Below are positions 18,845 to 61,654 of a stretch of 64,000 nucleotides of DNA, in pieces. Origin of the DNA: a virus (taxonomy: Duplodnaviria > Caudoviricetes); the IMG/VR virus record IMGVR_UViG_3300016649_000355; one strand, 5' to 3'. Position 1 is the first letter of the stretch, and every line of letters begins with the position of its first letter. Position numbers and translations under genes: made by a program. The notes beneath the pieces were generated by a model. It was not told the DNA's origin, did not search any database, and was given only the letters and a program-made list of their open reading frames with translations.

Positions 18845-19768
18845 ATGCCGCGTAAACCAAAAGAAGACAAAAAAGTACCTGTAGAACAGGTAAAAGAAGT
18901 TTTACAAGAGATCAAAGAGACTCCTGCAACTAACAGCGAACAACAGGTTGTAGCTCAAACCCAAGAAAATCAACAACCACAGCAAGGACAGGTTCAGGTC
19001 AATGTAGACTTCTTGCGCACAACAAGAGTTCACATCGCTATGCCTTGTTATGGTGGAATGTTGACTGAATCAACTTTCATGAGTTTCATCAAGTGGGCAA
19101 ATACTGCCCGTCAATTAGGTATTGATTGGACATTGGAAACAATGGTTAACGAATCATTGATTAGCCGCGCAAGAAACACGCTAACTGCTAAATTCCTTGA
19201 TATGCCCGATGCTACACACTTGTTCTTTGTTGATGCTGATATTGGTTGGGAGCCATGGCACTTATTGGTTCTATTGAACCGCGACAAAGATGTTATCGCA
19301 GGTTTATATCCCATGAAGACCATGCCAATCAAGTGGGTTGTCAATGGTTTCGACGGTGCAGAAGAAGGTCCTGATGGCTTACAAGAGGTAAGCAAAGCAG
19401 GTACAGGTTTCTTATTGATGAAGAAACATGTGTTTGAAAAGATGAATAGTCACCCTGCTGTGAAGCAGTACAAGAACGATATCGGACTTGATCCTAAGTA
19501 TGATCAGTATCTAAAGACTTATTTTGATACAGCAGTCCGTCAAAATCGTTACTATAGTGAAGACTGGACATTTTGCGAGAACTGGCGTGATCTAGGTGGT
19601 CGTATCTGGGTCGATAAGCGTGTATTACTACGCCATAGTGGTAGCTATGTTTTCTGTATGGAAAATCAACAGCACTTAATGAACACGATCGGACCTATGT
19701 ACATCAATGAACAAAAGCAAAAAGGCTTTAAGTTAGTTGATCAAAATGGGAATGAAATAGCTGTTTAA
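18845..19768 (+). CDS. GT-A fold glycosyltransferase-like protein
   Basis: IAMPCYGG, ESLISRARN, LFFVDADIGW, GTGFLLM, SEDWTFC. Confidence 0.75.
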   Translation: MPRKPKEDKKVPVEQVKEVLQEIKETPATNSEQQVVAQTQENQQPQQGQVQVNVDFLRTTRVHIAMPCYGGMLTESTFMSFIKWANTARQLGIDWTLETMVNESLISRARNTLTAKFLDMPDATHLFFVDADIGWEPWHLLVLLNRDKDVIAGLYPMKTMPIKWVVNGFDGAEEGPDGLQEVSKAGTGFLLMKKHVFEKMNSHPAVKQYKNDIGLDPKYDQYLKTYFDTAVRQNRYYSEDWTFCENWRDLGGRIWVDKRVLLRHSGSYVFCMENQQHLMNTIGPMYINEQKQKGFKLVDQNGNEIAV

Positions 19769-19771
19769 AAC

Positions 19772-19795
19772 AAAGCCCCGAAAGGGGCTTTTTTG
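19772..19795 (+). terminator. Rho-independent terminator
   Basis: AAAGCCCC-GAAA-GGGGCTTT followed by a T run. Confidence 0.9.
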
Positions 19796-19823
19796 TTTAT
19801 GTAGTATTACAAATAAATACTAT

Positions 19824-34598: not shown

Positions 34599-35330
34599 AT
34601 GAAAGATAATCTACAAGACTTAATCCAACACACACATGGTCTAGGTGTCATCGATCTCATCAAGGTCGTTGGAACTGATACTGAGACACAGATCGCGGCA
34701 ATCGCAGAAGATAAATCAGTGATCGTGAACGGAAAGTTCATCAATCCCGTCGCAGACTTCATCGGCACTTTTGGTATGCCTAATCTTGGTAAGCTAAAAA
34801 CTATTTTAAGCTTTGATGATTACGACAACAACGCTACTATCAAAGTCACGAAACAAAACAAAGATGGCGTAGAGATTCCCGCTACTATTCACTTTTCTAC
34901 TAAGACAAATGATTTCGTCAATGACTATCGATTGATGAGCAAGGTCATCATCGAAGAGAAAGTAAAGAATGTTACATTCAAGGGTGCTACATGGAATGTA
35001 GAATTCGAACCAACAGTGGCAGGAATTCTCAGGCTCAAGAAGCAGGCGCAGGCAAATAACGAAGAGCCAAACTTCACTACTAAAACAGACAACAATGATC
35101 TAAAAATTTATTTTGGTGATCCTTCAACTCACAGTGGCAACTTTGTATTTCAGCCCGGTGTCAATGGCACATTAAGCCGGCCGTGGATGTGGCCAGTCAA
35201 AGTGTTCATGAGCATCATGGATTTACCCGGAGACAAGATCGTTAAGATCAGCGATCAGGGTGCTTGCGAGATCACAGTCAATAGTGGGCTTGCTGTCTAT
35301 CAATATCTATTACCCGCACAAGCAAAATAA
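34599..35330 (+). CDS. Putative sliding clamp
   Basis: About 243 aa with a two-domain beta/alpha pattern; directly after PolB; clamp loader in window. Confidence 0.5.
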   Translation: MKDNLQDLIQHTHGLGVIDLIKVVGTDTETQIAAIAEDKSVIVNGKFINPVADFIGTFGMPNLGKLKTILSFDDYDNNATIKVTKQNKDGVEIPATIHFSTKTNDFVNDYRLMSKVIIEEKVKNVTFKGATWNVEFEPTVAGILRLKKQAQANNEEPNFTTKTDNNDLKIYFGDPSTHSGNFVFQPGVNGTLSRPWMWPVKVFMSIMDLPGDKIVKISDQGACEITVNSGLAVYQYLLPAQAK

Positions 35331-35337
35331 CAATTAT

Positions 35338-36891
35338 ATGTCAAGTGAGCAGATAAATCTAACACAACAACATAACAAAGACTGGGCATTGTTTCTCCCC
35401 GCAGTGTCTAGCTTTTTTATCACAGGATTAGGCAAGCAAAGAGAGGGACAGCAATATTTCGACGCCGCTAGAATTCCCCAGGGGTTCAACGGTGATGTTG
35501 AGTGCTTGAATTTTCTCAATAGCAAGCAAGGCTTATATACTTATAAATGGGGTTTGTATAGTGCTGGTCATGCCAATCTTGATACCATAGTAGATGATCC
35601 CGCTGAGAGCATTATTCGCAAGCGTGAACAAGGTACATTCATGCTAGGTGATAGTGGTGGATTTCAGATCATGAAGGGTCAATGGCCCGCAGACTGGAAA
35701 GATATGAACTGTCCCAAAGCAATAGCACAGCGACAAAAAGTATTGAAGTGGATGGATACATACATGGACTATGGTATGTGTCTAGATGTTCCTTCGCAAA
35801 CCGTTAGGAATCAACATCTATTAGACAAGCATGGTATCACAAGCATACAAGACGCGATCACTGCCACACATATCAATAACGAATACTTCATCAAACACAG
35901 GAACGGCAATTGCAAGTTCTTGAATGTATTACAGGGTCTCAATCATACGCAGAGTGATGCTTGGTATCAAGAGATGAAGAAATATTGTGATCCAAAAGTC
36001 TATCCAGACAATCATTTCAATGGTTGGGCTTTCGGGGGTCAGACAAAGATCGACATCCATTTGACACTAAAACGGATCGTGCATATCATCCACGATGGAT
36101 TATTAGAACCGGGTAAACACGATCTAATTCACTGTCTAGGTACAAGTATCTTAGAGTATGCTGTGTTGTTCAGTGATATACAGAGGGCTGTTAGGAAGTA
36201 TCACAACCCAAATCTACAGATCACTTTCGATTGTGCTAGCCCATTCTTCAGCGCGGCAAAAGGTCTTGCATATTTCAATACTAGTATTGAGCATGACAAA
36301 AAATGGGCATACTCAATGGAAAAAACTGCCGAGAAAAAGAGTTATGCCAATGATAAAAGGAAATTTAGTGACGCGGTATTGCAGGACAAAGTCCATAAAC
36401 TCTTTACTGACAGTCCTGTAACTGATAGAATGTTGATCAGTGACTTATGTTACAGGGGTCAAGGTTTCATTAATCAGCAAGGCAAAGAAACAAAAACAAG
36501 TTGGGACACATTGAGTTATACATTATTACAGGCACACAATGTTTATCAGCATATTCATGCAGTACAAGAAGCAAATAGAAAATATGATCAAGGTATCATC
36601 CCTAAAATGGTAATGAATGAGACCTTTGAACGGATCAGATTCAGCGAGATCGTTGATGAAATTTTTTCGTTAAAAGATCGGCAAAAAAGTTTAGATTTGA
36701 TTGATAAGTACGATAGATTCTGGATGCAGATGAAGTCGGGTAGTCAAGGTTTCAGTGGTAAAAAAGCAGTAAATGCATTAACAATGTTTGACCAATTATT
36801 TGAAGTAACGGATAATGATCCTGAAGTAGAGGATCCGATTATAGACAGCGATGACGCCATACTAGAGGTAATTGACGATGATAAATCGTAG
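35338..36891 (+). CDS. dpdA: TGT-fold 7-deazaguanine transglycosylase-like protein (DpdA, probably DpdA3-type)
   Basis: LGDSGGFQ, CLDVP, NVLQG, GWAFGG, HCLGT, TFDCASP TGT motifs; folE/queD/queE nearby. Confidence 0.8.
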   Translation: MSSEQINLTQQHNKDWALFLPAVSSFFITGLGKQREGQQYFDAARIPQGFNGDVECLNFLNSKQGLYTYKWGLYSAGHANLDTIVDDPAESIIRKREQGTFMLGDSGGFQIMKGQWPADWKDMNCPKAIAQRQKVLKWMDTYMDYGMCLDVPSQTVRNQHLLDKHGITSIQDAITATHINNEYFIKHRNGNCKFLNVLQGLNHTQSDAWYQEMKKYCDPKVYPDNHFNGWAFGGQTKIDIHLTLKRIVHIIHDGLLEPGKHDLIHCLGTSILEYAVLFSDIQRAVRKYHNPNLQITFDCASPFFSAAKGLAYFNTSIEHDKKWAYSMEKTAEKKSYANDKRKFSDAVLQDKVHKLFTDSPVTDRMLISDLCYRGQGFINQQGKETKTSWDTLSYTLLQAHNVYQHIHAVQEANRKYDQGIIPKMVMNETFERIRFSEIVDEIFSLKDRQKSLDLIDKYDRFWMQMKSGSQGFSGKKAVNALTMFDQLFEVTDNDPEVEDPIIDSDDAILEVIDDDKS

Positions 36892-37435: not shown

Positions 37436-37645
37436 ATGTCATATCATAGAAAAATTGAATCATTAACCGAAACTCACCGTTTACTTGACAAGCAGATTGC
37501 AGACCTTGAAAAAGTACACGGAGACGCCCAAAAGATTAGCGAACTCAAGAAACAAAAGCTACAATACAAAGACGAGATCACTAGACTCACTAAACTACAG
37601 TGGGAAGAAGATCATGAGCGTGTATATTTTGAGGATGATCGATAA
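37436..37645 (+). CDS. YdcH/DUF465-like coiled-coil protein
   Basis: HRLLDKQI...LKKQKLQYKDEI. Confidence 0.7.
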   Translation: MSYHRKIESLTETHRLLDKQIADLEKVHGDAQKISELKKQKLQYKDEITRLTKLQWEEDHERVYFEDDR

Positions 37646-38103
37646 TGGATCAAGTAGAAGTTTCTAGGACAGAAAAAAGACAAAGGATCAAAACAGCAGC
37701 GAAACGGATGATTTATGTAACTTTTCAGAAAGAAGGTATTCATAGATATCCCGCTGCCGAGACTGATCCTAAATTAAAAACAGGTGATGAATATGATGTA
37801 TCGTTCCTTGCTTATGCCCATAGGCATATTTTTCATTTTAATGTTGCTATCGAGGTATTCCACAATGACCGAGATGTGGAATTCATCCAATTTAAAAGAT
37901 GGCTTGAAAGATTGTATAGTAGCGACCAAAGTGTATTGTCGCTCGACTTCAAAAGCTGCGAAATGATCAGCGATGATCTTTACGATCAAATCGCTAGTCG
38001 TTATCCAGACCGTGACATCCATATAACTGTCAGTGAAGACAACGAAAATGGGGCCACAATTTTTTATAACCGTAATCAACCTTACCAACAACTAGTAATC
38101 TAA
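37645..38103 (+). CDS. dpdL: QueD-paralog T-fold protein (DpdL-like candidate CDG decarboxylase)
   Basis: LAYAHRHIF fits LxxxHRHxF (motif recalled for DpdL, not verified by search); HNDRDVEFIQFKRWL; SCEM; EDNENG. Confidence 0.65.
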   Translation: MDQVEVSRTEKRQRIKTAAKRMIYVTFQKEGIHRYPAAETDPKLKTGDEYDVSFLAYAHRHIFHFNVAIEVFHNDRDVEFIQFKRWLERLYSSDQSVLSLDFKSCEMISDDLYDQIASRYPDRDIHITVSEDNENGATIFYNRNQPYQQLVI

Positions 38104-38114
38104 GGAGAGTAGTA

Positions 38115-38324
38115 ATGGCAAAAGTAGCAATCAAATCAAATCCCCGTGTCCATCAAATTTTTGATGATCTTGAAAGTTTCCTTAACTTTTGTAAAAACTT
38201 CGGGTATCGCTACAATCCCGAGGATTTGTACAGCAATAAAAGTCATGTCTATCGCCAATATACAAAATATTTGACAGGAAAGCCGGTCAAAAATATGTGG
38301 GATCTTGATGGTAAAAATTCATAA
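38115..38324 (+). CDS. Hypothetical protein
   Basis: SD AAGGAG; 69 aa. Confidence 0.65.
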   Translation: MAKVAIKSNPRVHQIFDDLESFLNFCKNFGYRYNPEDLYSNKSHVYRQYTKYLTGKPVKNMWDLDGKNS

Positions 38325-39063
38325 AATCGTCTTAGTGACCGGGGGGTTTGATCCCATACATAGCGGTCACATACAATATATAAAAGAAGCCAAAACGCTA
38401 GGACAGATTTTAATCGTAGGTCTTAATAGTGATGAATGGTTGACTCGCAAAAAAGGTCAACCTTTCATGTGTTTTGATGAAAGAAAATCTATTCTAGAAG
38501 AATTCGCAAGTGTGGATGAGGTCATTGGTTATGATGACAGTGACAATAGTAGTAAGAATGCTATCATTAAAGTCAGGCAAAAATATCCTGATGCTACTAT
38601 CATCTTTGCTAATGGTGGAGATCGCACAAAAGAAAATATTCCAGAAATGGATATCAATGATTCTAACATAAAATTTGCATTCGGCATAGGTGGAGACTAC
38701 AAGAAAAACTCTAGTAGTTGGATACTCCGTGAATGGAAGGAACCCAAGACAATAAGATCATGGGGACATTATAGAGTATTATACGACATCAACGGATGTA
38801 AAGTTAAAGAATTAGTAGTTGACCCTGATAAATCACTAAGCATGCAAAAACATAATGAAAGATCAGAGTTATGGTTTGTAAGCGAAGGAAAATGCAAGGT
38901 GGATTTTGATACAGGAATTCCCATGTATCTTACCGAGCATACCGACACTAAAATTTTCAGAACTCAATGGCATAGACTATATAATCCATATGACAAACCT
39001 TGCAAGATAGTTGAAATACAATATGGAACAAATTGCAGTGAAACAGATATTGAGAGGAAATAA
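38308..39063 (+). CDS. Cytidylyltransferase + mannose-6-phosphate isomerase-type cupin fusion
   Basis: TGGFDPIHSGH; FANGGDR; RSWGHYRVL...LSMQKHNERSELW. Confidence 0.85.
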   Translation: MVKIHKIVLVTGGFDPIHSGHIQYIKEAKTLGQILIVGLNSDEWLTRKKGQPFMCFDERKSILEEFASVDEVIGYDDSDNSSKNAIIKVRQKYPDATIIFANGGDRTKENIPEMDINDSNIKFAFGIGGDYKKNSSSWILREWKEPKTIRSWGHYRVLYDINGCKVKELVVDPDKSLSMQKHNERSELWFVSEGKCKVDFDTGIPMYLTEHTDTKIFRTQWHRLYNPYDKPCKIVEIQYGTNCSETDIERK

Positions 39064-41052: not shown

Positions 41053-41139
41053 GGAAGGACTAAATACTATTGCTATACAAAGATAGCAAAATTACCGAAA
41101 GGTCGTTGAGCATTTACGATAGATGCTTTGGAGCGAGAT

Positions 41140-41811
41140 ATGTATAAATTATATAAAATAACCAATACAGTAAACGGAAAACTGTATATCGGTATTACAA
41201 AATTACCCATACAACAGCGGTGGGCTAAACATCTAAAAGATTCACTTTTTCCCAAATATCCACTACATCATGCGATAAACAAATACGGGAAAGAAAACTT
41301 CATTGTAGAATTGTTAGAAGAATCAATCGACCGAGCATATATAAGCAATCTAGAAGAACCGTCAATACTAAAATATAATAGTAGAAATAACGGATATAAT
41401 GTTGCTAAGGGCGGATATGGCGGTGATTTAGGTACTGAAGCAAGAGCAAAAAGTTTAGAAACAATAAAAAATTGGTCCGATGAGAAGAAAGCGGAACATA
41501 AGCAAAAACTACATGAAAGAAATTTAGGCAAAACAAAGTACAACGATTTAGGCAGATTGCATCAGTCAGAAAAAATAAAAGGTAATACTTTTAGAAAAGG
41601 AATACCGCATGATACTGAGGTTAAACAAAAGATATCGTCAAAAAATAAAGGAAAAATTCGTTCCGAACAATCTAGACTAAAGTATAGAAATAGTGCTAAA
41701 CTAAGAGGAACAGGCCCGCAGTTACAAGGTAAAAAAGTTGGTTGTATCTGCTGCCAAAAAGAATGGGATTTAGGTAATTTTTCACAACATATAAAAAGGA
41801 AGTCATTATGA
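41140..41811 (+). mobile_element. Free-standing GIY-YIG homing endonuclease (seg-like)
   Basis: LYKITNTVNGKLYIGIT, NGYN, NUMOD3-like HxxExKQKIS. Confidence 0.88.
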
Positions 41812-42485
41812 GTTTCAACAAAACTAAGGCAGACCCTGAATTAGGTAAAAAAGTTCACGAATATTTAGTAAAAGTCGGTGTCGAAACTCCCACTATCTTT
41901 AACGGTTTGAGTCGCACCGATAAAATTGAGATTATTGAAAAAAAGTTCATAGATATTATGAACACGCTAGGACTTGATTTATCAGACGATAGTTTAGCAG
42001 AAACACCTAAGCGTGTAGCAAAAATGTATGTTGGAGAAATTTTTTGGGGCCTTGACTATGAAGCATTTCCAAAATGCACAACAGTCGATAACAAAATGAA
42101 GTATAACGAAATGGTGGTAGAGAGAAATGTATCTGTACAAAGTAATTGTGAGCATCACTTTGTTGTTATTGACGGTCTGGCAACTGTGGCATATGTACCA
42201 AAAAACAAAGTGCTTGGACTGTCTAAAATCAACCGCATCGTTGAGTATTTCAGCAAAAGACCACAAATCCAAGAACGGTTGACTGAACAGATTTTTCACA
42301 CATTGCAATACATCCTGGAGACTGAAGATGTTGCAGTCATGATTGACGCACAACATTACTGTGTAAAATCTAGGGGAGTAGAAGATACGGGTAGTTCTAC
42401 CGTGACTGTTAGATTAGGCGGTGGATTCAAGAGCGACCCAGCAGCTAGGAATGAATTCTTGAGCATTGCGAGGATGAAAAAATGA
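41808..42485 (+). CDS. folE: GTP cyclohydrolase I
   Basis: ETPKRVAKMY, SNCEHH, GLSKINRIV, QIQERLT, HYCVKSRG. Confidence 0.96.
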   Translation: MSFNKTKADPELGKKVHEYLVKVGVETPTIFNGLSRTDKIEIIEKKFIDIMNTLGLDLSDDSLAETPKRVAKMYVGEIFWGLDYEAFPKCTTVDNKMKYNEMVVERNVSVQSNCEHHFVVIDGLATVAYVPKNKVLGLSKINRIVEYFSKRPQIQERLTEQIFHTLQYILETEDVAVMIDAQHYCVKSRGVEDTGSSTVTVRLGGGFKSDPAARNEFLSIARMKK

Positions 42486-42616
42486 TCACTAGTATACTTG
42501 CGTTGTTCGTGATGCTAGCCATGGTTGTATATTTGTTAATTCCTGAAAACAAAAATTGCAATCAGGACTGCAATCAAGGACGAGATTGTGATTGTGGAGA
42601 CAAGAATGGGATTTAG
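42482..42616 (+). CDS. Small membrane protein with Cys motif (44 aa; absent from ORF track)
   Basis: Hydrophobic N-terminus, then CNQDCNQGRDCDC; ATGA overlap. Confidence 0.55.
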   Translation: MITSILALFVMLAMVVYLLIPENKNCNQDCNQGRDCDCGDKNGI

Positions 42617-42842
42617 AAAACCTTTAGATCGTGACTCAATATACCATCAGATTCATATGGCGGGTGTTGAAATAAATAGTCCATATAATGATGGATATAC
42701 TGCATTCGAAGTCAAAAAAGATTTATACAAGATCAAATGGCTCATTGAAGAAATCTTGAATGATAGCGCATATCTCAGCGGAGAAGATGAGTGGGTCGAA
42801 GAACAATCAAAACAACAAATGTGGAGAAAACTTAAAAAATGA
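42606..42842 (+). CDS. Hypothetical protein
   Basis: Tiles operon. Confidence 0.6.
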   Translation: MGFRKPLDRDSIYHQIHMAGVEINSPYNDGYTAFEVKKDLYKIKWLIEEILNDSAYLSGEDEWVEEQSKQQMWRKLKK

Positions 42843-43312
42843 TTTTTAATTATGTGAAAGAAATTAAGCGGCAGGGATTAAAGATTGGCATTACATTCAG
42901 CACATTTGATCTATTACATGCTGGGCATATCGCTATGTTAAGTGAAGCAAAAAATCACTGCGATTATCTTATTGCCGGATTACAAACTGACCCCACAATT
43001 GATCGTCCGGATACTAAAAATCCCCCGGTTCAATCAATCGTCGAGAGACAAATTCAATTGGCAGCTACTAGATATGTAGATGAGATCGTAGTTTATGAGA
43101 CTGAAAAGGATCTACTTGATCTACTATTGATCTTGCCCGTCGATGTTAGAATCCTGGGAGTAGAATACTATGATAAACCCTTTACCGGGAGAGATGAGTG
43201 TATTCAGCGTGGCATTGAGTTGGTGTTCAACGGGCGCGATCATAGTTTTAGCTCAAGCAGTCTGAGGAAAAGAGTGGCTGAAGCGGAAAATAATAAAAAC
43301 AGTTGTTGTTAA
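42839..43312 (+). CDS. Glycerol-3-phosphate cytidylyltransferase-like protein
   Basis: STFDLLHAGH, GLQTDP, YVDEI, RDHSFSSSSLR. Confidence 0.88.
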   Translation: MIFNYVKEIKRQGLKIGITFSTFDLLHAGHIAMLSEAKNHCDYLIAGLQTDPTIDRPDTKNPPVQSIVERQIQLAATRYVDEIVVYETEKDLLDLLLILPVDVRILGVEYYDKPFTGRDECIQRGIELVFNGRDHSFSSSSLRKRVAEAENNKNSCC

Positions 43313-43316
43313 AAAT

Positions 43317-43361
43317 AGCGGTCTTGGCATTCATCCCGCTTTATAAATTCTGCATACCATC
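43317..43361 (+). ncRNA. Candidate H-type pseudoknot leader (preQ1-I-like architecture) upstream of queD
   Basis: P1 AGCGG/CCGCT, 14-nt loop, A-rich tail, possible loop-tail pairing TGGCAT/ATACCA (5 of 6 pairs). Confidence 0.35.
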
Positions 43362-43393
43362 AAACTTGCTCATTTTTTTACAGGAGACTAGAG

Positions 43394-43873
43394 ATGGCAA
43401 AATATATTTCAACTAAAACATATAATCAGATTGGACCGGTCGCATACCGTCAATGGCGTGCGGATAGTCATTGTAATCTTATTCATGGTTACGCATTGAG
43501 TTTTCATTTTGAATTTGAATGTGATGACCTTGATGCCCGTAACTGGTGCATGGATTTCGGTGGCTTGCGTCCACTCAAAGATAAATTGGAAGATTGGTTC
43601 GATCATACTTTATTAGTTGCACAAGATGACCCACATCATGACATATTACTCAATCTAGGTAAACTAGGTATCGCAAAGATTACTGAAGTGGAAAAGACTG
43701 GATGCGAGGGCATCGCAGACTTTTTGTATGAATATATCAATACAATCTTTTTACCTGAATATGGTCGAGTAGAAGCGGATAGAATTTGGTGTTGTAAGGT
43801 AGAAGTACGGGAAACAGATAGTAACATGGCAATGAGAATCGGACATAGAGAGGATAACGAATATAATGATTGA
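43394..43873 (+). CDS. queD: 6-carboxytetrahydropterin synthase
   Basis: HCNLIHGY, WCMDFGG, FDHT, VEVRET. Confidence 0.92.
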   Translation: MAKYISTKTYNQIGPVAYRQWRADSHCNLIHGYALSFHFEFECDDLDARNWCMDFGGLRPLKDKLEDWFDHTLLVAQDDPHHDILLNLGKLGIAKITEVEKTGCEGIADFLYEYINTIFLPEYGRVEADRIWCCKVEVRETDSNMAMRIGHREDNEYND

Positions 43874-44471
43874 AACAATTTGTGAAATTTTTAAAGAAGG
43901 ATATAAAAGGGGTTGGATAACCGCCCGTGATGGTAACGCATCAGTTAGATATAAAGAACAAAATTATTTCTTTGTGACTCCTTCTGGGGTGAGGAAACAA
44001 TTTTTGCAGCCCGAGATGTTTCTAAAAGTTTCAGTCGATGATAGAAATAATCATCAAAGCCTAAGCCAACTGGGAGAAAGTTTAAAGCCTTCAGGTGAAT
44101 TGCCATTGCATCATGGATTGCAGAAACAAATCGATACCGATATTAGGGTAGTATTACACATGCATCCCACATATACAGTATCAGCACTATATAAAGGAAT
44201 AAATCTACAGCAACTATTAGAAGATTTTCCTGAATTAAGTAGGTATACAAGTGTTGCCCCTTCTATCCCACTCATTCCTCCTGTATCCGAAGAACTTGCT
44301 AAAGCCTGCATAGAAAATCTACAAGTAGAGAATGGTAAGATCAAATACAACATCATTGGTATGGACAGACACGGCGTAGTGGCTGTGGATACTAGCCCCT
44401 GGCGTGCTTTCGAGCATATCGAAAGGTTAGAGCATATATCCAAGATCGTTTTAGAATCAGGTAGGATATGA
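43866..44471 (+). CDS. Class II aldolase/adducin family protein
   Basis: DGNAS, VTPSG, PSGELPLH, LHMHPTY, HGVVAV. Confidence 0.85.
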   Translation: MIETICEIFKEGYKRGWITARDGNASVRYKEQNYFFVTPSGVRKQFLQPEMFLKVSVDDRNNHQSLSQLGESLKPSGELPLHHGLQKQIDTDIRVVLHMHPTYTVSALYKGINLQQLLEDFPELSRYTSVAPSIPLIPPVSEELAKACIENLQVENGKIKYNIIGMDRHGVVAVDTSPWRAFEHIERLEHISKIVLESGRI

Positions 44472-44953
44472 AAAAAAGATATGTAAGTTGGGAACAGCAT
44501 ACTAAACTTGTCAACGAGATTTTGCGGCAGATGGCAAAAGATCGTTGGACACCTGATATTGTCGTGGGTATCTCAAGGGGAGGATTATTGCCTGCAAAGA
44601 TGATCAGCCAATATCTTGAAAAGCCATTAGAGATTGTAAAGATTTCATTACGCAATGAGGGAATATGCGAGTCCAATCTTGCTTTGGTAGAAGATGCCTT
44701 GAAGATGAAGCGCATATTGATTGTAGACGATATAAATGACACCGGTGCTACACTGAACTGGTTAAAGGATGATTGGGAAAATCCAAAAAGTTCTAAATGG
44801 TTAAGCATGTGGGGATTCTCAGTAAGGGTAGCAGTGGTATTTGATAATCTAGCAAGCGATTCACAATTGCGTGTCAGCTATCATGGCGAAGAGATCAATA
44901 AACTTGACAATCCAGAATGGATCGTGTTTCCCTGGGAAGACTGGTGGCGATGA
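44468..44953 (+). CDS. Type I phosphoribosyltransferase (purine PRT-like)
   Basis: GISRGGLLPA, ILIVDDINDTGAT, WIVFPWE. Confidence 0.9.
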   Translation: MKKRYVSWEQHTKLVNEILRQMAKDRWTPDIVVGISRGGLLPAKMISQYLEKPLEIVKISLRNEGICESNLALVEDALKMKRILIVDDINDTGATLNWLKDDWENPKSSKWLSMWGFSVRVAVVFDNLASDSQLRVSYHGEEINKLDNPEWIVFPWEDWWR

Positions 44954-45141: not shown

Positions 45142-45278
45142 TGCGTAAAAATTTATATCTATTTCTATTTTTTTTACTTTTTTTGCTTTTATATTTCACA
45201 GGCGAATATCTCGGATGTGTCAAAATGATCGCAATTAAAAATACACTTTGTGGCCCGGGGAGTTTAAATCTATTATGA
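45141..45278 (+). CDS. Small hydrophobic hypothetical protein
   Basis: Fills the gap; TAATG junction; TM-like N-terminus. Confidence 0.35.
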   Translation: MRKNLYLFLFFLLFLLLYFTGEYLGCVKMIAIKNTLCGPGSLNLL

Positions 45279-45667
45279 TGCGCGATGACTTAATGGTTCA
45301 AGAGCAAATTAATAATGAATGGGAACACATGGTGGGAGTTATCATGTTGAACCAGACACACAGGAAACAAGTAAAAGCAGTATTGCCAGAATTCTTAAAA
45401 AGATTTCCCCATCCAGAATCTGTTGTTAGAAGCAGGATAATTGATATCGAAGAGATCATTAAACCTTTGGGCATGTATAAAGTGAGGGCAAAAAGAATCT
45501 ATCGTATGACTATAGATTACTTGACTTGGGATAAACAAAATGCTAAGATGTTGTATGGAATTGGTAAATACGGTAGTGACAGCTATGAGATATTTTTCAA
45601 GAACAATTATAATGTAGAACCAACTGACAAAGAATTAAAAAGGTATTTAAATGAACATCAAAGTTAG
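45275..45667 (+). CDS. HhH-GPD DNA glycosylase (MBD4/EndoIII-like)
   Basis: IMLNQT, IKPLGMYKVRAKRI, LYGIGKYGSDSYEIF. Confidence 0.82.
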   Translation: MMRDDLMVQEQINNEWEHMVGVIMLNQTHRKQVKAVLPEFLKRFPHPESVVRSRIIDIEEIIKPLGMYKVRAKRIYRMTIDYLTWDKQNAKMLYGIGKYGSDSYEIFFKNNYNVEPTDKELKRYLNEHQS

Positions 45668-46499
45668 TGAATTGTTTTACAGCATTCAGGGAGAAGGAAG
45701 GTACATGGGAGTACCTTCCGTGTTCTTGAGGACATTTGGTTGCAACTTTACATGTGATGGGTTTGGTATGGCTAAAGGCATGAAATCAAATGAGAGAGAT
45801 TTCTTTGCAGCCAATATCATGCGTTATCAAAGCTACAAGAACCTTCCACTAGCTGGTACAGGCTGTGATAGTTATGCTAGCTGGGATCCAAGATTCAAGG
45901 ATCTAAGTCCCATGGTAGAGATCGATGGATTGGTAAATAATATCATGGATATGTTGCCTTATAACGAATGGCGTGATGAACATCTTGTGATCACGGGAGG
46001 TGAACCTTTATTAGGTTGGCAACGAGCATATCCTGAACTACTGGGACATGAAAAGATGCGATCATTGAAACATCTTACATTTGAGACAAATGGGACACAG
46101 ATGTTGACTACTGAGTTCGCAACTTGGCTTCACCGTGAATTCCATCATGATCGTGGAATATATAGCGTGACATTCAGCATCAGTCCTAAATTAAGTGTGA
46201 GCGGTGAGAAGCGTGAAGATGCTATCAAGCCCGAAGTAGTGGCACAACTTGATGAGTATGGATATGCGTATCTTAAATTTGTTGTTGCTAGCGAAGAAGA
46301 TGTAACCGAAGCATTAGAGATGACAGAGCTTTATCGTGATGCAGGGTTCGGTGGTCCAGTATATTTGATGCCTCTGGGAGGCATCGAATCAACATATCAT
46401 ATGAACAAGACACAAGTAGCAAATTTAGCATTGAAGCATGGATTGAGGTACAGCGATAGACTGCATGTGCCATTATTTAAAAACGCCTGGGGAACATAA
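45651..46499 (+). CDS. queE: 7-carboxy-7-deazaguanine synthase (radical SAM)
   Basis: ELFYSIQGEG, RTFGCNFTC...CDS, ITGGEP, ETNGT, SPKL, RLH. Confidence 0.92.
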   Translation: MNIKVSELFYSIQGEGRYMGVPSVFLRTFGCNFTCDGFGMAKGMKSNERDFFAANIMRYQSYKNLPLAGTGCDSYASWDPRFKDLSPMVEIDGLVNNIMDMLPYNEWRDEHLVITGGEPLLGWQRAYPELLGHEKMRSLKHLTFETNGTQMLTTEFATWLHREFHHDRGIYSVTFSISPKLSVSGEKREDAIKPEVVAQLDEYGYAYLKFVVASEEDVTEALEMTELYRDAGFGGPVYLMPLGGIESTYHMNKTQVANLALKHGLRYSDRLHVPLFKNAWGT

Positions 46500-46687: not shown

Positions 46688-46908
46688 TGTTTTATAAGGA
46701 TCCTGATATTTTTTGGTATCGTGCAACATGGCGAAGGAAACTTTCTATATTCCCGAGGCGTTGCGCTACATCAAAAGAATTGTTATGGTTCAAGAAAGCA
46801 TATCTAGGACAGACAACATATTTCGGGCCCGGTGATCCTGTAGTAGAAGAACGATGGCTATCAGATAAAGAATATATTTTCAAGAAATTAAAGGGTGAGA
46901 TACTTTGA
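46687..46908 (+). CDS. Hypothetical protein
   Basis: TAATG junction. Confidence 0.55.
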   Translation: MFYKDPDIFWYRATWRRKLSIFPRRCATSKELLWFKKAYLGQTTYFGPGDPVVEERWLSDKEYIFKKLKGEIL

Positions 46909-48257
46909 AAACATATGACAAGCGTATAGCGTTCATGATAAGCGATCAGCATTTTATCCCGCACGGTGGGATAGGGAGTTTCTGCAAAGGATTCATTGAG
47001 ATGTGCGGTAGACTAAACTGGAAAGTAGACATACTACTAGACAAGTCTCCGCGCAATAAAACATTCTGCGAACTCATAGAATCATTGGGTGCCAATGTAT
47101 TATGGCCATTAGAACCATTAAGTTATACAGACCATACTGCCACATTTGCATTTAGCGATACTATCAACTTTGAAAAGATCATCAACTTCCGTAAAGTCAT
47201 ATTGGAAGCATTTGAAGAAAATATCTACGATATGATCGTATGTAACACACAGGAAGCGATGACTGCGGCATATGCTATGACAGTCAACAAGTATATTCCT
47301 GTGGTGTTCTATACACACTTGCATAGCATGATCTTCCGTGACAGCCAAGGTAGTGATGTATTCTTAGACAGTTACCATAACTTCTATAACAAGCATATGG
47401 AGCTTACTGATATCATCATCGGTACACAGAGTCAAAAGAATATTGACGAACTCACAAAGTATGGCGCTACTAACTGTAGACTATTGCGCATGCCTATGAG
47501 TGAGCGTGGATTGCTTGAAAGATATAAAGGTAAGCGTGAGGGTGTACTATTCATCGGTCGCTGGGAAGAAGGCAAGAATCCAGAAGCATATATCCGTGTT
47601 ATGAAAGAATGCAAACTTCCCTGTCGTGTGATGACTAACGAGAGCGGTAGAAAGAAGTTTGAGAAAGCATTTGATCAAGCGGGCATTATCGATTATACTA
47701 TCAAAGCAGGTATTACTGGTCAAGAGAAAGTAAATTTCATCAGGCAGTCAGATACATTCTTCATGCCAAGTCTGCGTGAGAACTATCCATTTGCATTTTT
47801 AGAATGTTTAGGTCATATGCCATGTGTTGTGCTTGACACGCAGGACTGGAGTGACAATTTTAATGGGCAGTACTTCCACAAGGTAAATATCAAAGATGCA
47901 AGTAATCTTATCAAGACTATCTATGGCGGTAATCAATTAGCGACCGCATTAGATTATGTCAAGAAATTAGATGATGAAGTGGCTGAGGGTTGGATCAGAT
48001 TTGTAGACGATTTTGTTGCCAAGCGTAGCAACACAAACAGCGCCAAGATCAATAGTTATGATACTGTAAAGTATAGTGACTACATCAAGGATTTGGACAG
48101 GAAACATCTAGCCCGAGAAGATTTTGAAAGTGTGTTGTCAAACAAGAAAAAATTTATTAAAATTGTCTACACGGACAATGACACATACCTATCCAAGGAC
48201 CCGTCTTTCATGCCCAAAGAAGAACAATCAGGATTAAATTTATTTGAAGGAATATAA
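46905..48257 (+). CDS. GT4-like glycosyltransferase
   Basis: PHGGIG, FIGRWEEGKNP, PSLRENYPFAFLE. Confidence 0.82.
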   Translation: MKTYDKRIAFMISDQHFIPHGGIGSFCKGFIEMCGRLNWKVDILLDKSPRNKTFCELIESLGANVLWPLEPLSYTDHTATFAFSDTINFEKIINFRKVILEAFEENIYDMIVCNTQEAMTAAYAMTVNKYIPVVFYTHLHSMIFRDSQGSDVFLDSYHNFYNKHMELTDIIIGTQSQKNIDELTKYGATNCRLLRMPMSERGLLERYKGKREGVLFIGRWEEGKNPEAYIRVMKECKLPCRVMTNESGRKKFEKAFDQAGIIDYTIKAGITGQEKVNFIRQSDTFFMPSLRENYPFAFLECLGHMPCVVLDTQDWSDNFNGQYFHKVNIKDASNLIKTIYGGNQLATALDYVKKLDDEVAEGWIRFVDDFVAKRSNTNSAKINSYDTVKYSDYIKDLDRKHLAREDFESVLSNKKKFIKIVYTDNDTYLSKDPSFMPKEEQSGLNLFEGI

Positions 48258-49090
48258 TGAAAAAAGTATTGATCACAGGTAGTTCAGGTTACATCGGTTC
48301 ACATCTTTGTGAATTATTGAAAAAAGATTATGAAGTGCATGGATTAGATATCAGACCTCCGCAGGTTGAAGTATCTAAATTTTATCAAGTAGACATAAAT
48401 CGACTGTTCACTATCCCCGATCAACTAGAACCATATGATGCGGTGATACATCTTGCGGCACTAGTCAATGTAGGTGAGAGCGAAAAGATGCCCATCATGT
48501 ATTATGTCACAAATCTAAATGGCACTATGAATGTTTTAAATAAGATTCCAACTAGAAATTTTATTTTTGCTAGCACCGGTGCGGCGCAAGATTGTGAGAG
48601 TGCATATGGTGTGAGCAAAAGGGCTGCCGAAGATGTTGTCCGTGAATACTGCAATAGGCATAGTCCAAAAGACTTTACAATTTTTAGATTTTACAATGTG
48701 ATCGGTAGCTCAGTGGTAAAACCAACTAATCCAGATGGATTGTTCTACAAATTGATAGAAGCTAAGACCACTGGTGAATTTACTATCTATGGAACTGATT
48801 ATCCTAACACCAGTGATGGCACATGTGTCCGTGATTATGTTCATGTTGATGAGATATGTCATGCATTGCGTGATGCTATTGAAAAATCTGCTAATAAAAC
48901 AGAATGTCTAGGACACGGGGTAGGTTATACTGTAAAAGAAATGGCTGAAATATTTCAAAAAGTAAATGACTGTGATTTTGAAATCAAAAAAGGACCCAGG
49001 CGCAAAGGTGATATAGAGTACTATGTGTTAGAAGATGTGTCTAGTTTTATGAAGAATCTGTATGCTATTGAGGATCTTTTAAAGATTTGA
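48257..49090 (+). CDS. galE: NAD-dependent epimerase (UDP-glucose 4-epimerase-like)
   Basis: TGSSGYIGSH, HLAAL..VGES, YGVSK, RFYNV, DGTCVRDYVHV. Confidence 0.9.
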   Translation: MKKVLITGSSGYIGSHLCELLKKDYEVHGLDIRPPQVEVSKFYQVDINRLFTIPDQLEPYDAVIHLAALVNVGESEKMPIMYYVTNLNGTMNVLNKIPTRNFIFASTGAAQDCESAYGVSKRAAEDVVREYCNRHSPKDFTIFRFYNVIGSSVVKPTNPDGLFYKLIEAKTTGEFTIYGTDYPNTSDGTCVRDYVHVDEICHALRDAIEKSANKTECLGHGVGYTVKEMAEIFQKVNDCDFEIKKGPRRKGDIEYYVLEDVSSFMKNLYAIEDLLKI

Positions 49091-58597: not shown

Positions 58598-58598
58598 C

Positions 58599-58628
58599 TT
58601 GACATAAATTCCCTGCATATGTTATAGT
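58599..58628 (+). promoter_or_regulatory. Sigma70-like early promoter
   Basis: TTGACA-N18-TATAGT. Confidence 0.6.
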
Positions 58629-58658
58629 GTAATTATCTATAACTTTGCAGGGAATACC

Positions 58659-60454: not shown

Positions 60455-60479
60455 CAATAAATGGATTTGGGTATATAAT
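60451..60479 (+). promoter_or_regulatory. Consensus sigma70 early promoter
   Basis: TTGACA-N17-TATAAT. Confidence 0.85.
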
Positions 60480-60511
60480 AGTCTTCATACAGTCAAACAA
60501 CGGAGATAGAG

Positions 60512-61593: not shown

Positions 61594-61596
61594 GGC

Positions 61597-61625
61597 TTGA
61601 CAATAAATGGCTTTATGTCTATAAT
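61597..61625 (+). promoter_or_regulatory. Consensus sigma70 early promoter
   Basis: TTGACA-N17-TATAAT; shares TTGACAATAAATGG with the 60451 promoter. Confidence 0.85.
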
Positions 61626-61654
61626 AGATTTTATTGAATAACTCAGGAGCAATC

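Follow-up and report, generated by a model that had tools for sequence, protein, structure and literature searches.

A conserved pseudoknot in phage queD leaders: a riboswitch candidate of the preQ1-I kind with predicted ON wiring

Does the leader of a phage queD gene sense a small molecule? The question is raised by IMG/VR record IMGVR_UViG_3300016649_000355, a 64,000-nt stretch of Caudoviricetes DNA (the whole stretch is called the window below), in which a gap of 81 nt separates a nucleotidyltransferase-like open reading frame (ORF; 42839-43312) from an ORF of the PTPS/QueD family (43394-43873; referred to as queD). An earlier sequence-only reading had drawn a small pseudoknot in this gap and likened it to the class I preQ1 riboswitches. 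The comparative analysis presented here indicates that the pseudoknot exists and is conserved among many uncultured phages, and it makes a regulatory role at the level of queD translation probable. The evidence for the structure is given first, followed by the predicted wiring, the genes of the cluster, the candidate ligands and the comparison with known RNA families.

Anatomy of the queD leader

The element is an H-type pseudoknot that spans 43317-43359 (+ strand). Its parts, together with the signals that flank it, are as follows (P, paired helix; L, loop; SD, Shine-Dalgarno sequence; MFE, minimum free energy structure).

43310-43312, + strand, stop codon (TAA) of the upstream ORF, 4 nt before P1
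43317-43321, + strand, 5' strand of P1, AGCGG, partner 43336-43340
43322-43324, + strand, L1, TCT (UCU); consensus N-C-U, followed by 0-6 variable nt in relatives
43325-43330, + strand, 5' strand of P2, TGGCAT (UGGCAU), partner 43354-43359
43331-43335, + strand, L2, TCATC (UCAUC); C43335 unpaired and immediately 5' of the P1 3' strand
43336-43340, + strand, 3' strand of P1, CCGCT (CCGCU), covarying
43341-43353, + strand, L3, 13 nt; consensus N-W-A-N-A-N-A-Y-U-C-Y-G-C, an A-rich first half and then a conserved UUCUGC
43354-43359, + strand, 3' strand of P2, ATACCA (AUACCA); register supported by slide and shuffle controls
43358-43396, + strand, predicted sequestering hairpin, tail MFE of -3.3 kcal/mol
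43382-43386, + strand, SD, AGGAG, 22-27 nt 3' of P2
43394, + strand, queD start codon (ATG)

The letters quoted in the sequence-only reading are present where it had placed them. Two of its details need correction: the distance from the tail to the ATG is 34 nt rather than 33, and the gap is not the only sizeable one in the gene row, which also holds gaps of 75 nt (41053-41127) and 102 nt (42486-42587). P2 of the window copy contains a mismatch, C43328 opposite A43356 (C.A). Related-strain contigs from two other freshwater studies carry G at 43356, which restores a C-G pair, and one contig from a second study retains the A; the window copy is thus a minority allele with a weakened P2, or the mismatch is possibly a protonated A.C wobble. 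The leader by itself folds no better than shuffled sequence (z = +1.0), single-sequence folding being uninformative for a pseudoknot. A single sequence therefore proves nothing in this case, and the comparative evidence is decisive.

Distribution of the motif

Relatives were collected in two ways. With the QueD protein as query, IMG/VR yielded 80 loci (82-90% identity), whose upstream regions contain the same leader with obvious compensating changes. A covariance model, in which P1 provides the only base pairs, was built from 25 of the 80 loci. The model matches the 64-kb window exactly once (68.6 bits, E 7e-21) and finds the element in 65 of the 80 loci, with one copy in each and always on the coding strand. 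The second search was independent of the protein and scanned sequence collections for the pattern of the loop letters. Viral contigs gave at least 120 pattern matches, and 79 out of 79 loci among the matches listed were true hits of the model, at 30-69 bits. Contigs of prokaryote genomes (596 Gb) gave 16 pattern matches, which is about the chance expectation; four of these were true by the covariance model, and all four lie on contigs of metagenome-assembled genomes (MAGs; three contigs of 4-8 kb and one of 22 kb), on each of which a QueD-like ORF follows the motif. Taken together, the window and one copy in each of 148 other sequences, all on the coding strand, amount to 149 instances and 113 distinct aptamers, a lower bound.

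Cultured phages gave a different picture. For the queD loci of seven of them (ACP17, Xanthomonas X1 and BUDD, Dinoroseobacter R26L, Achromobacter ART, Sinorhizobium Phosso and Pseudanabaena Pan1), a covariance search with the filters off yielded nothing above 6 bits; in most of these loci queD abuts the preceding gene. Absence from Acidovorax phage ACP17 and the two Xanthomonas phages concerns the closest cultured relatives of the QueD protein. The operon had no megablast match among the GenBank phages, and two leader types compared with the same phages by blastn gave chance matches only. The exact 24-nt stem-loop of the window was not found in viral contigs. The motif appears to be restricted to uncultured aquatic phages.

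Two marine copies (L086:2016-2071 and L093:4925-4980) are on contigs that had been binned to a Rickettsiales MAG. They have lost the first P1 pair and show a new P2 variant, GACUU/AAGUC, with the SD just 4-5 nt after P2; their platform may be wired differently.

Covariation of the helices

The 149 instances were parsed by fixed anchors. P2 was counted on this anchor-based alignment and on an ungapped MAFFT alignment of 36 sequences (A4), because the MAFFT and model-fitted alignments A1-A3 shift the 4-bp variants of P2 by one column. In A4, 92.5% of the cells pair, compared with 72.0% in shuffles (0/500), and the covariation score is 0.551, compared with 0.194 in shuffles (0/500). When the partner strand was slid, 39-54% of the cells paired. 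Both sides had changed in 7 of the 10 pairs.

The 113 distinct aptamers give the same result. Pair 2 of P1 occurs as GC, CG or TA, and pair 3 as CG, AT or TA. P2 is 4-6 bp long and far more variable: each of its five pairs has changed on both sides in one relative or another, the two strands occur in about 50 different combinations, and the innermost pair takes every one of the six standard types. Of the cells of the four inner P2 pairs, 89% are canonical; this value falls to 22-45% when the 3' strand is slid by 1-3 nt and to 51 ± 3% (maximum 61%) when strands are exchanged between sequences. Frequent G.U pairs fit the + strand only, which identifies it as the RNA strand. The pseudoknot as drawn in the sequence-only reading, with a 5-bp P1 and a loop-to-tail P2, is therefore borne out by the covariation among phage queD leaders that it had proposed to look for. 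On this comparative evidence the pseudoknot is real, with both helices held by compensatory changes.

Conservation of the loops

The unpaired letters behave in the opposite way. The C and U of L1 are retained in 109 of 110 aptamers and are invariant in alignment A1, which is unbiased for these letters. L2 reads U-C-A-N-C, of which the U, C, A and final C are invariant or nearly so. This final C (C43335), directly before the P1 3' strand, is found in 110/110 aptamers and is likewise invariant in A1; the base that precedes it is U in 79, C in 20 and A in 11. L3 measures 13 nt in 110 of the 113 aptamers, and its A residues at positions 3, 5 and 7 as well as the UC.G near its end do not vary. Positions 4 and 6 of L3 co-vary with pair 3 of P1 (mutual information of 0.83 and 0.66, respectively).

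In the set collected by QueD homology, which is not biased towards these letters, the pairwise identity is 81% for the loops, 47% for the P2 strands and 55% for the third codon positions of queD. The helices thus drift at about the neutral rate yet stay paired, whereas the loops are under selection. By analogy with the preQ1-I aptamers, C43335 is a candidate specificity base.

Link to queD and transcription of the element

The first ORF downstream of the motif is QueD-like in 135 of the 149 instances. Nearly all of the remainder are explained by contig ends, mis-called starts or one inserted ORF (small ORFs, a cupin or a methyltransferase) that is followed by queD. A gene of the QueD/PTPS family is the first or second downstream gene in every resolvable case, often with queE next. 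The genes around them are reshuffled among phages and only queD stays with the motif: upstream neighbours in relatives are FolE, nucleotidyltransferase, DpdL-like, GalE-like or phosphoribosyltransferase (PRTase) genes, and queE is common downstream. The tie to queD, here within a 7-deazaguanine cluster, bears out the gene context given in the sequence-only reading. In a single case (L175:2656-3650), a different PTPS-family protein, of 306 aa, stands behind the motif instead of the 159-aa QueD type.

Among the 113 leaders, 21 have a sigma-70 promoter with at least 10 of the 12 consensus letters whose end lies 5-14 nt before P1; 8 of these promoters are perfect. In these leaders, the stem is transcribed and the element forms the 5' end of the mRNA. 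The window has no sigma-70-like promoter upstream of the element (best 6/12), and the stop codon of the preceding ORF lies 4 nt before P1; the element is therefore inside a polycistronic message, a position that suits control of translation.

A signal in DNA rather than RNA had been named in the sequence-only reading as the alternative, in the form of a hairpin before a TATAAAT late promoter of the T4 type; a transcription terminator may be considered along with it. The letters TATAAAT do occur at 43342-43348, and a run of seven T occupies 43373-43379. We nevertheless regard such a signal as hardly credible. P2 covaries between loop and tail, and its G.U pairs make sense in + strand RNA only. 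TATAAAT is present in 30 copies in the window against 30.9 expected, and its letters are replaced in most relatives. The T run is not conserved and follows no G+C-rich stem, and the terminator scan lists nothing there. The T4-type late promoter was also tried as a candidate in its own right and was rejected: TATAAATA is neither conserved at a fixed place nor enriched between genes, occurring at chance frequency with varying letters, and the promoters found upstream of P1 in relatives place the stem downstream of the transcription start.

A predicted ON switch of translation

The tail between the pseudoknot and queD is predicted to fold into a hairpin that sequesters the SD. In the window it pairs CAUC (43358-61) with GAUG (43393-96), which includes the start codon, CU (43365-66) with AG (43390-91), G43368 with C43388, and CUC (43369-71) with GAG (43384-86), part of the SD AGGAG (43382-86). 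The SD is paired in the tail MFE of 101 out of 111 leaders. The hairpin sequence varies by lineage, but the start of its 5' arm always falls within the P2 3' strand or at the end of that strand. The anti-SD designs of relatives include CCUAUG/CAUAGG, CCUUAUU/AAUAAGG, CACUCC/GGAGU and UGUCUUC/GGAGACA, and the window type, CAUC...GAUG, is imperfect. Because the hairpin begins with 1-4 nt that also close the P2 3' strand (C43358 and A43359 in the window), pseudoknot and hairpin are predicted to exclude each other.

The consequences for the SD were estimated from partition functions calculated with the P2 strands blocked. The mean accessibility of the SD rises from 0.33 to 0.49. Gains above 0.1 are seen in 67 leaders and losses above 0.1 in 14, and for the window the value increases from 0.37 to 0.76.

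These data suggest the following mechanism. Positions 43317-43359 (+ strand) would act as the aptamer of a cis-acting riboswitch in the leader of the mRNA of a phage queD(-queE) operon. The loops and the helix junction would line a binding pocket suited to a small, planar molecule whose guanine-like edge the invariant C43335 would read, as the equivalent C does in preQ1-I. Ligand binding would stabilise the pseudoknot, free the ribosome-binding site and turn queD translation ON. On the sequence evidence at hand we consider a riboswitch candidate with a pseudoknot aptamer and predicted ON wiring to be the likely explanation of the motif, though by no means a secure one.

Several observations weigh against it. 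The window's own copy has the mismatch in P2, and its leader shows the unexceptional folding energy mentioned above. With P2 blocked, the accessibility of the AUG in the window drops from 0.12 to 0.01. The mean gain in SD accessibility is modest, and in some leaders it is absent or reversed. No Rfam family matches the motif, so that homology to a validated aptamer is at most putative. At -2 to -8 kcal/mol the sequestering hairpins have little stability, and the window type shares just 1-2 nt with P2; for these reasons the modelled ON direction is held with moderate confidence. Finally, biosynthetic genes are not usually under an ON switch, and the benefit of one to the phage is speculative.

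Some of these points would fit a structured operator that binds no small molecule, either a site bound by a protein of the phage or the host, or a pseudoknot, constitutive or temperature-sensitive, by which queD translation is adjusted within the polycistronic mRNA. Competition between pseudoknot and hairpin needs no ligand in principle, elements that couple or uncouple translation occur at operon-internal positions such as that of the window element, 4 nt past a stop codon, and the ligand binding of the riboswitch model is itself a prediction. Such an operator is unlikely in view of the loops: some twenty unpaired nucleotides are near-invariant while P2 and the synonymous sites of queD have been randomised, a pattern usual for compact ligand pockets. 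The layout, moreover, copies that of a known ligand-binding fold down to the specificity C, and no gene for an RNA-binding protein travels with the motif, only queD.

Genes of the cluster and candidate ligands

The window reads as a fragment of a large phage genome with nearly all genes on the + strand and a G+C content of about 0.37. It encodes a family B DNA polymerase and members of many phage families, and its sequence occurs in freshwater metagenome runs, two of which may be where it came from. The genes that bear on the pathway are listed below.

37645-38103, + strand, DpdL-like QueD paralog with the motif LAYAHRHIF
41808-42485, + strand, FolE (GTP cyclohydrolase I), NCBIfam FolE 325 bits, upstream of the element
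42839-43312, + strand, nucleotidyltransferase-like gene, Pfam CTP_transf_like, similar to NCBIfam rfaE domain II
43394-43873, + strand, QueD-like gene of the PTPS family, 159 aa, Pfam PTPS E 1e-14
43866-44471, gene of the class II aldolase/decarboxylase family, overlapping the end of queD
44468-44953, phosphoribosyltransferase, XPRT-like
45248-45667, HhH-GPD protein
45651-46499, + strand, QueE-like radical SAM gene, PHROG 2076, E 2e-53, downstream in the same gene row

The QueD-like protein scores 34 bits with the NCBIfam QueD model, under the cut-off of 89 bits, and is 71% identical to the QueD-like protein of Acidovorax phage ACP17; a sequence search of the PDB with it gave no match. It has CNLIHGY in place of CxxxHGH, so that the second His of the motif, which coordinates the zinc ion (PMC10516641), is a Tyr. 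Its exact reaction may differ from the synthesis of 6-carboxytetrahydropterin (CPH4). The motif LAYAHRHIF of the second paralog fits LxxxHRHxF, the signature of DpdL, a proposed decarboxylase of 7-carboxy-7-deazaguanine (CDG) (PMC10516641). Homologs of this paralog are found in Cellulophaga, Acidovorax and PA5oct-like jumbo phages. ACP17 lacks QueC (PF06508), as do three related contigs, of which one is 100% complete by CheckV, and the inspected parts of the window likewise showed none. From their gene content, these phages probably make CDG or 7-deazaguanine and not preQ0 or preQ1, which renders a classical preQ1 feedback loop less likely.

The candidate ligands that are left are a base of the pathway, a pterin intermediate or a host purine. 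Weighed from context only, the chances of a base of the 7-deazaguanine family (preQ1, preQ0, CDG or 7-deazaguanine) are about even. A pterin intermediate (dihydroneopterin triphosphate or CPH4) is a rather unlikely ligand on the same grounds, and guanine or another purine is somewhat less likely again, as is the case in which no small molecule is bound. The PRTase gene hints that a deazapurine base might become a nucleotide.

A number of further features were noted in and around the cluster. The aldolase-like gene stands beside queD in just 2 other loci, and the position of the PRTase gene shifts among relatives. A 543-aa protein (35260-36891) has no Pfam match, and its tblastn homologs are annotated as hypothetical only and belong to jumbo phages; in PA5oct-like phages they lie about 2.7 kb from the DpdL-like gene, and a DpdA-type transglycosylase is an unverified candidate for its identity. 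An ORF resembling GIY-YIG homing endonucleases (41128-41811) has a DUF6071 gene on one side and folE on the other; it is probably a mobile element that inserted into the modification cluster. Sugar genes at 38305-39063, 42839-43312 and 46905-49090 are interleaved with the deazaguanine genes; they include two heptose-1-phosphate adenylyltransferase-like genes (one fused to a cupin/mannose-6-phosphate isomerase domain), a group 1 glycosyltransferase and a GalE-like epimerase. They suggest a sugar-nucleotide branch, perhaps for glycosylation of the modified base or of another target.

Elsewhere in the window, a G+C-rich hairpin followed by a T run (19769-19823), directly after the ORF at 18845-19768, resembles an intrinsic terminator. 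Short gaps at 58598-58658, 60455-60511 and 61594-61633 contain near-consensus TTGACA/TATAAT and are probably early promoters for host sigma-70.

Relation to the preQ1 riboswitch families

The Rfam model of preQ1-I (RF00522, gathering score of 39 bits) gave no match at E<=10 on 43305-43400 of the window (96 nt), on 42800-43900 or on positions 260-350 of a related contig (L006), nor did it match at the motif in three whole related contigs; in a control search the model was above its cut-off in one of 14 control genomes. RF01054 (preQ1-II) and RF02680 (preQ1-III) gave nothing at E<=10, nor at the gathering score over the whole window. The rest of Rfam 15, searched over the whole window at the gathering score and over 1.1 kb and 96 nt at E<=10, yielded only chance-level matches to unrelated families. 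The Infernal comparison that the sequence-only reading had suggested thus assigns the element to none of the three preQ1 classes, even at E<=10. Literature searches for a riboswitch of phage queD or for 7-deazaguanine found no report.

What remains of the proposed class I match is the layout and the gene context; the lack of an RF00522 match, the length of L3 (13 nt, with an extra UUCUGC), an SD outside P2 and the predicted ON wiring all depart from it. The element might still be a divergent true member of preQ1-I that binds host-made preQ1 or preQ0 and shuts queD down at high levels of the base, as in the classical OFF switch. The shared P1 letters, the invariant C, the A-rich start of L3 and the queD context would all be accounted for in this way. 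We nonetheless consider it improbable: RF00522 matches neither the 96 nt nor the motif in whole contigs at E<=10, the 13-nt L3 carries its extra invariant UUCUGC, the SD is not in P2, there is no terminator, and the geometry of the platform favours ON. In addition, the absence of QueC (from the three related contigs, ACP17 and the inspected parts of the window) implies that these phages probably make no preQ0 or preQ1 themselves.

A bolder proposal is that the motif represents a new riboswitch class and not a subtype of preQ1-I, sensing an intermediate or product that is absent from the known preQ1 switches and turning a committed enzyme of DNA hypermodification ON. CDG, 7-deazaguanine or a pterin (dihydroneopterin triphosphate or CPH4) would be its candidate ligands. 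We put this forward as a tentative possibility, with the balance tilted against it. If true, it would be the first riboswitch known to control the synthesis of a modified DNA base in a virus. The motif is widespread (at least 140 instances) and has no Rfam entry, and it is located at the entry of the 7-deazaguanine DNA-modification pathway, which shields phage genomes from restriction. If a ligand is bound, phages would meter their DNA-hypermodification pathway with RNA. One of the smallest known aptamers would then gain a relative that acts as an ON switch, of use for structural comparison and as a compact genetic tool, and the motif could show which deazapurine or pterin builds up in infected cells.

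Comparison with known systems

A precedent for an H-type pseudoknot at the 5' end of a phage mRNA that governs translation of the downstream gene is the leader of T4 gene 32, the operator of gp32. That pseudoknot is not known to have conserved loops resembling a ligand pocket or a link to base-modification genes. Few phages are known to carry riboswitches. A glutamine riboswitch is carried by the OM43 phage Melnitz, and such phage elements have been described as rare (PMC9004378). Riboswitches of this type resemble the present motif in that a metabolite-sensing RNA regulates the phage's own genes; they are, however, copies of known bacterial classes, and the present motif is without a catalogued bacterial counterpart.

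The preQ1-II and preQ1-III riboswitches, which are OFF switches in bacteria (PMC11625349), are likewise pseudoknotted leaders of queuosine-related genes, some of which place the SD in an additional hairpin of the 3' tail, but they have other folds and are larger. The closest likeness is to preQ1-I (RF00522; types I-III, for example B. subtilis queC, T. tengcongensis and E. coli type III), since both are small H-type pseudoknots in leaders of the queuosine pathway. P1 has 5 bp in both, often with the same letters as in B. subtilis AGAGG/CCUCU (the sequence string of that aptamer was confirmed in PMC10639078), P2 is formed between the P1 loop and the 3' tail, and L3 starts A-rich. In preQ1-I, the unpaired C that pairs with the ligand lies directly 5' of the P1 3' strand and is preceded by U (type I) or A (types II and III) (PMC11625349); the invariant C of the phage motif has the same position and follows U, C or A.

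The differences concern the loops, the platform and the setting. P2 of the phage motif is longer (4-6 bp) than in the solved aptamers described in PMC11625349, and L1 is N-C-U plus a variable insert. In preQ1-I the A-rich L3 is short and occupies the minor groove of P1; the phage L3 is A-rich over its first 7 nt, with the three invariant A and the two positions that co-vary with P1 pair 3, but it is 13 nt long and ends in an invariant UUCUGC that preQ1-I lacks. The preQ1-I platform buries the SD in P2 or uses a terminator and acts as an OFF switch, whereas here the SD lies outside the pseudoknot, no terminator is present and an ON response is predicted. The motif is, furthermore, found almost only in uncultured phages with a pathway without QueC. 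Overall, the motif is best described as a variant of the preQ1-I kind; it makes a good candidate for a riboswitch, with a predicted ON response.

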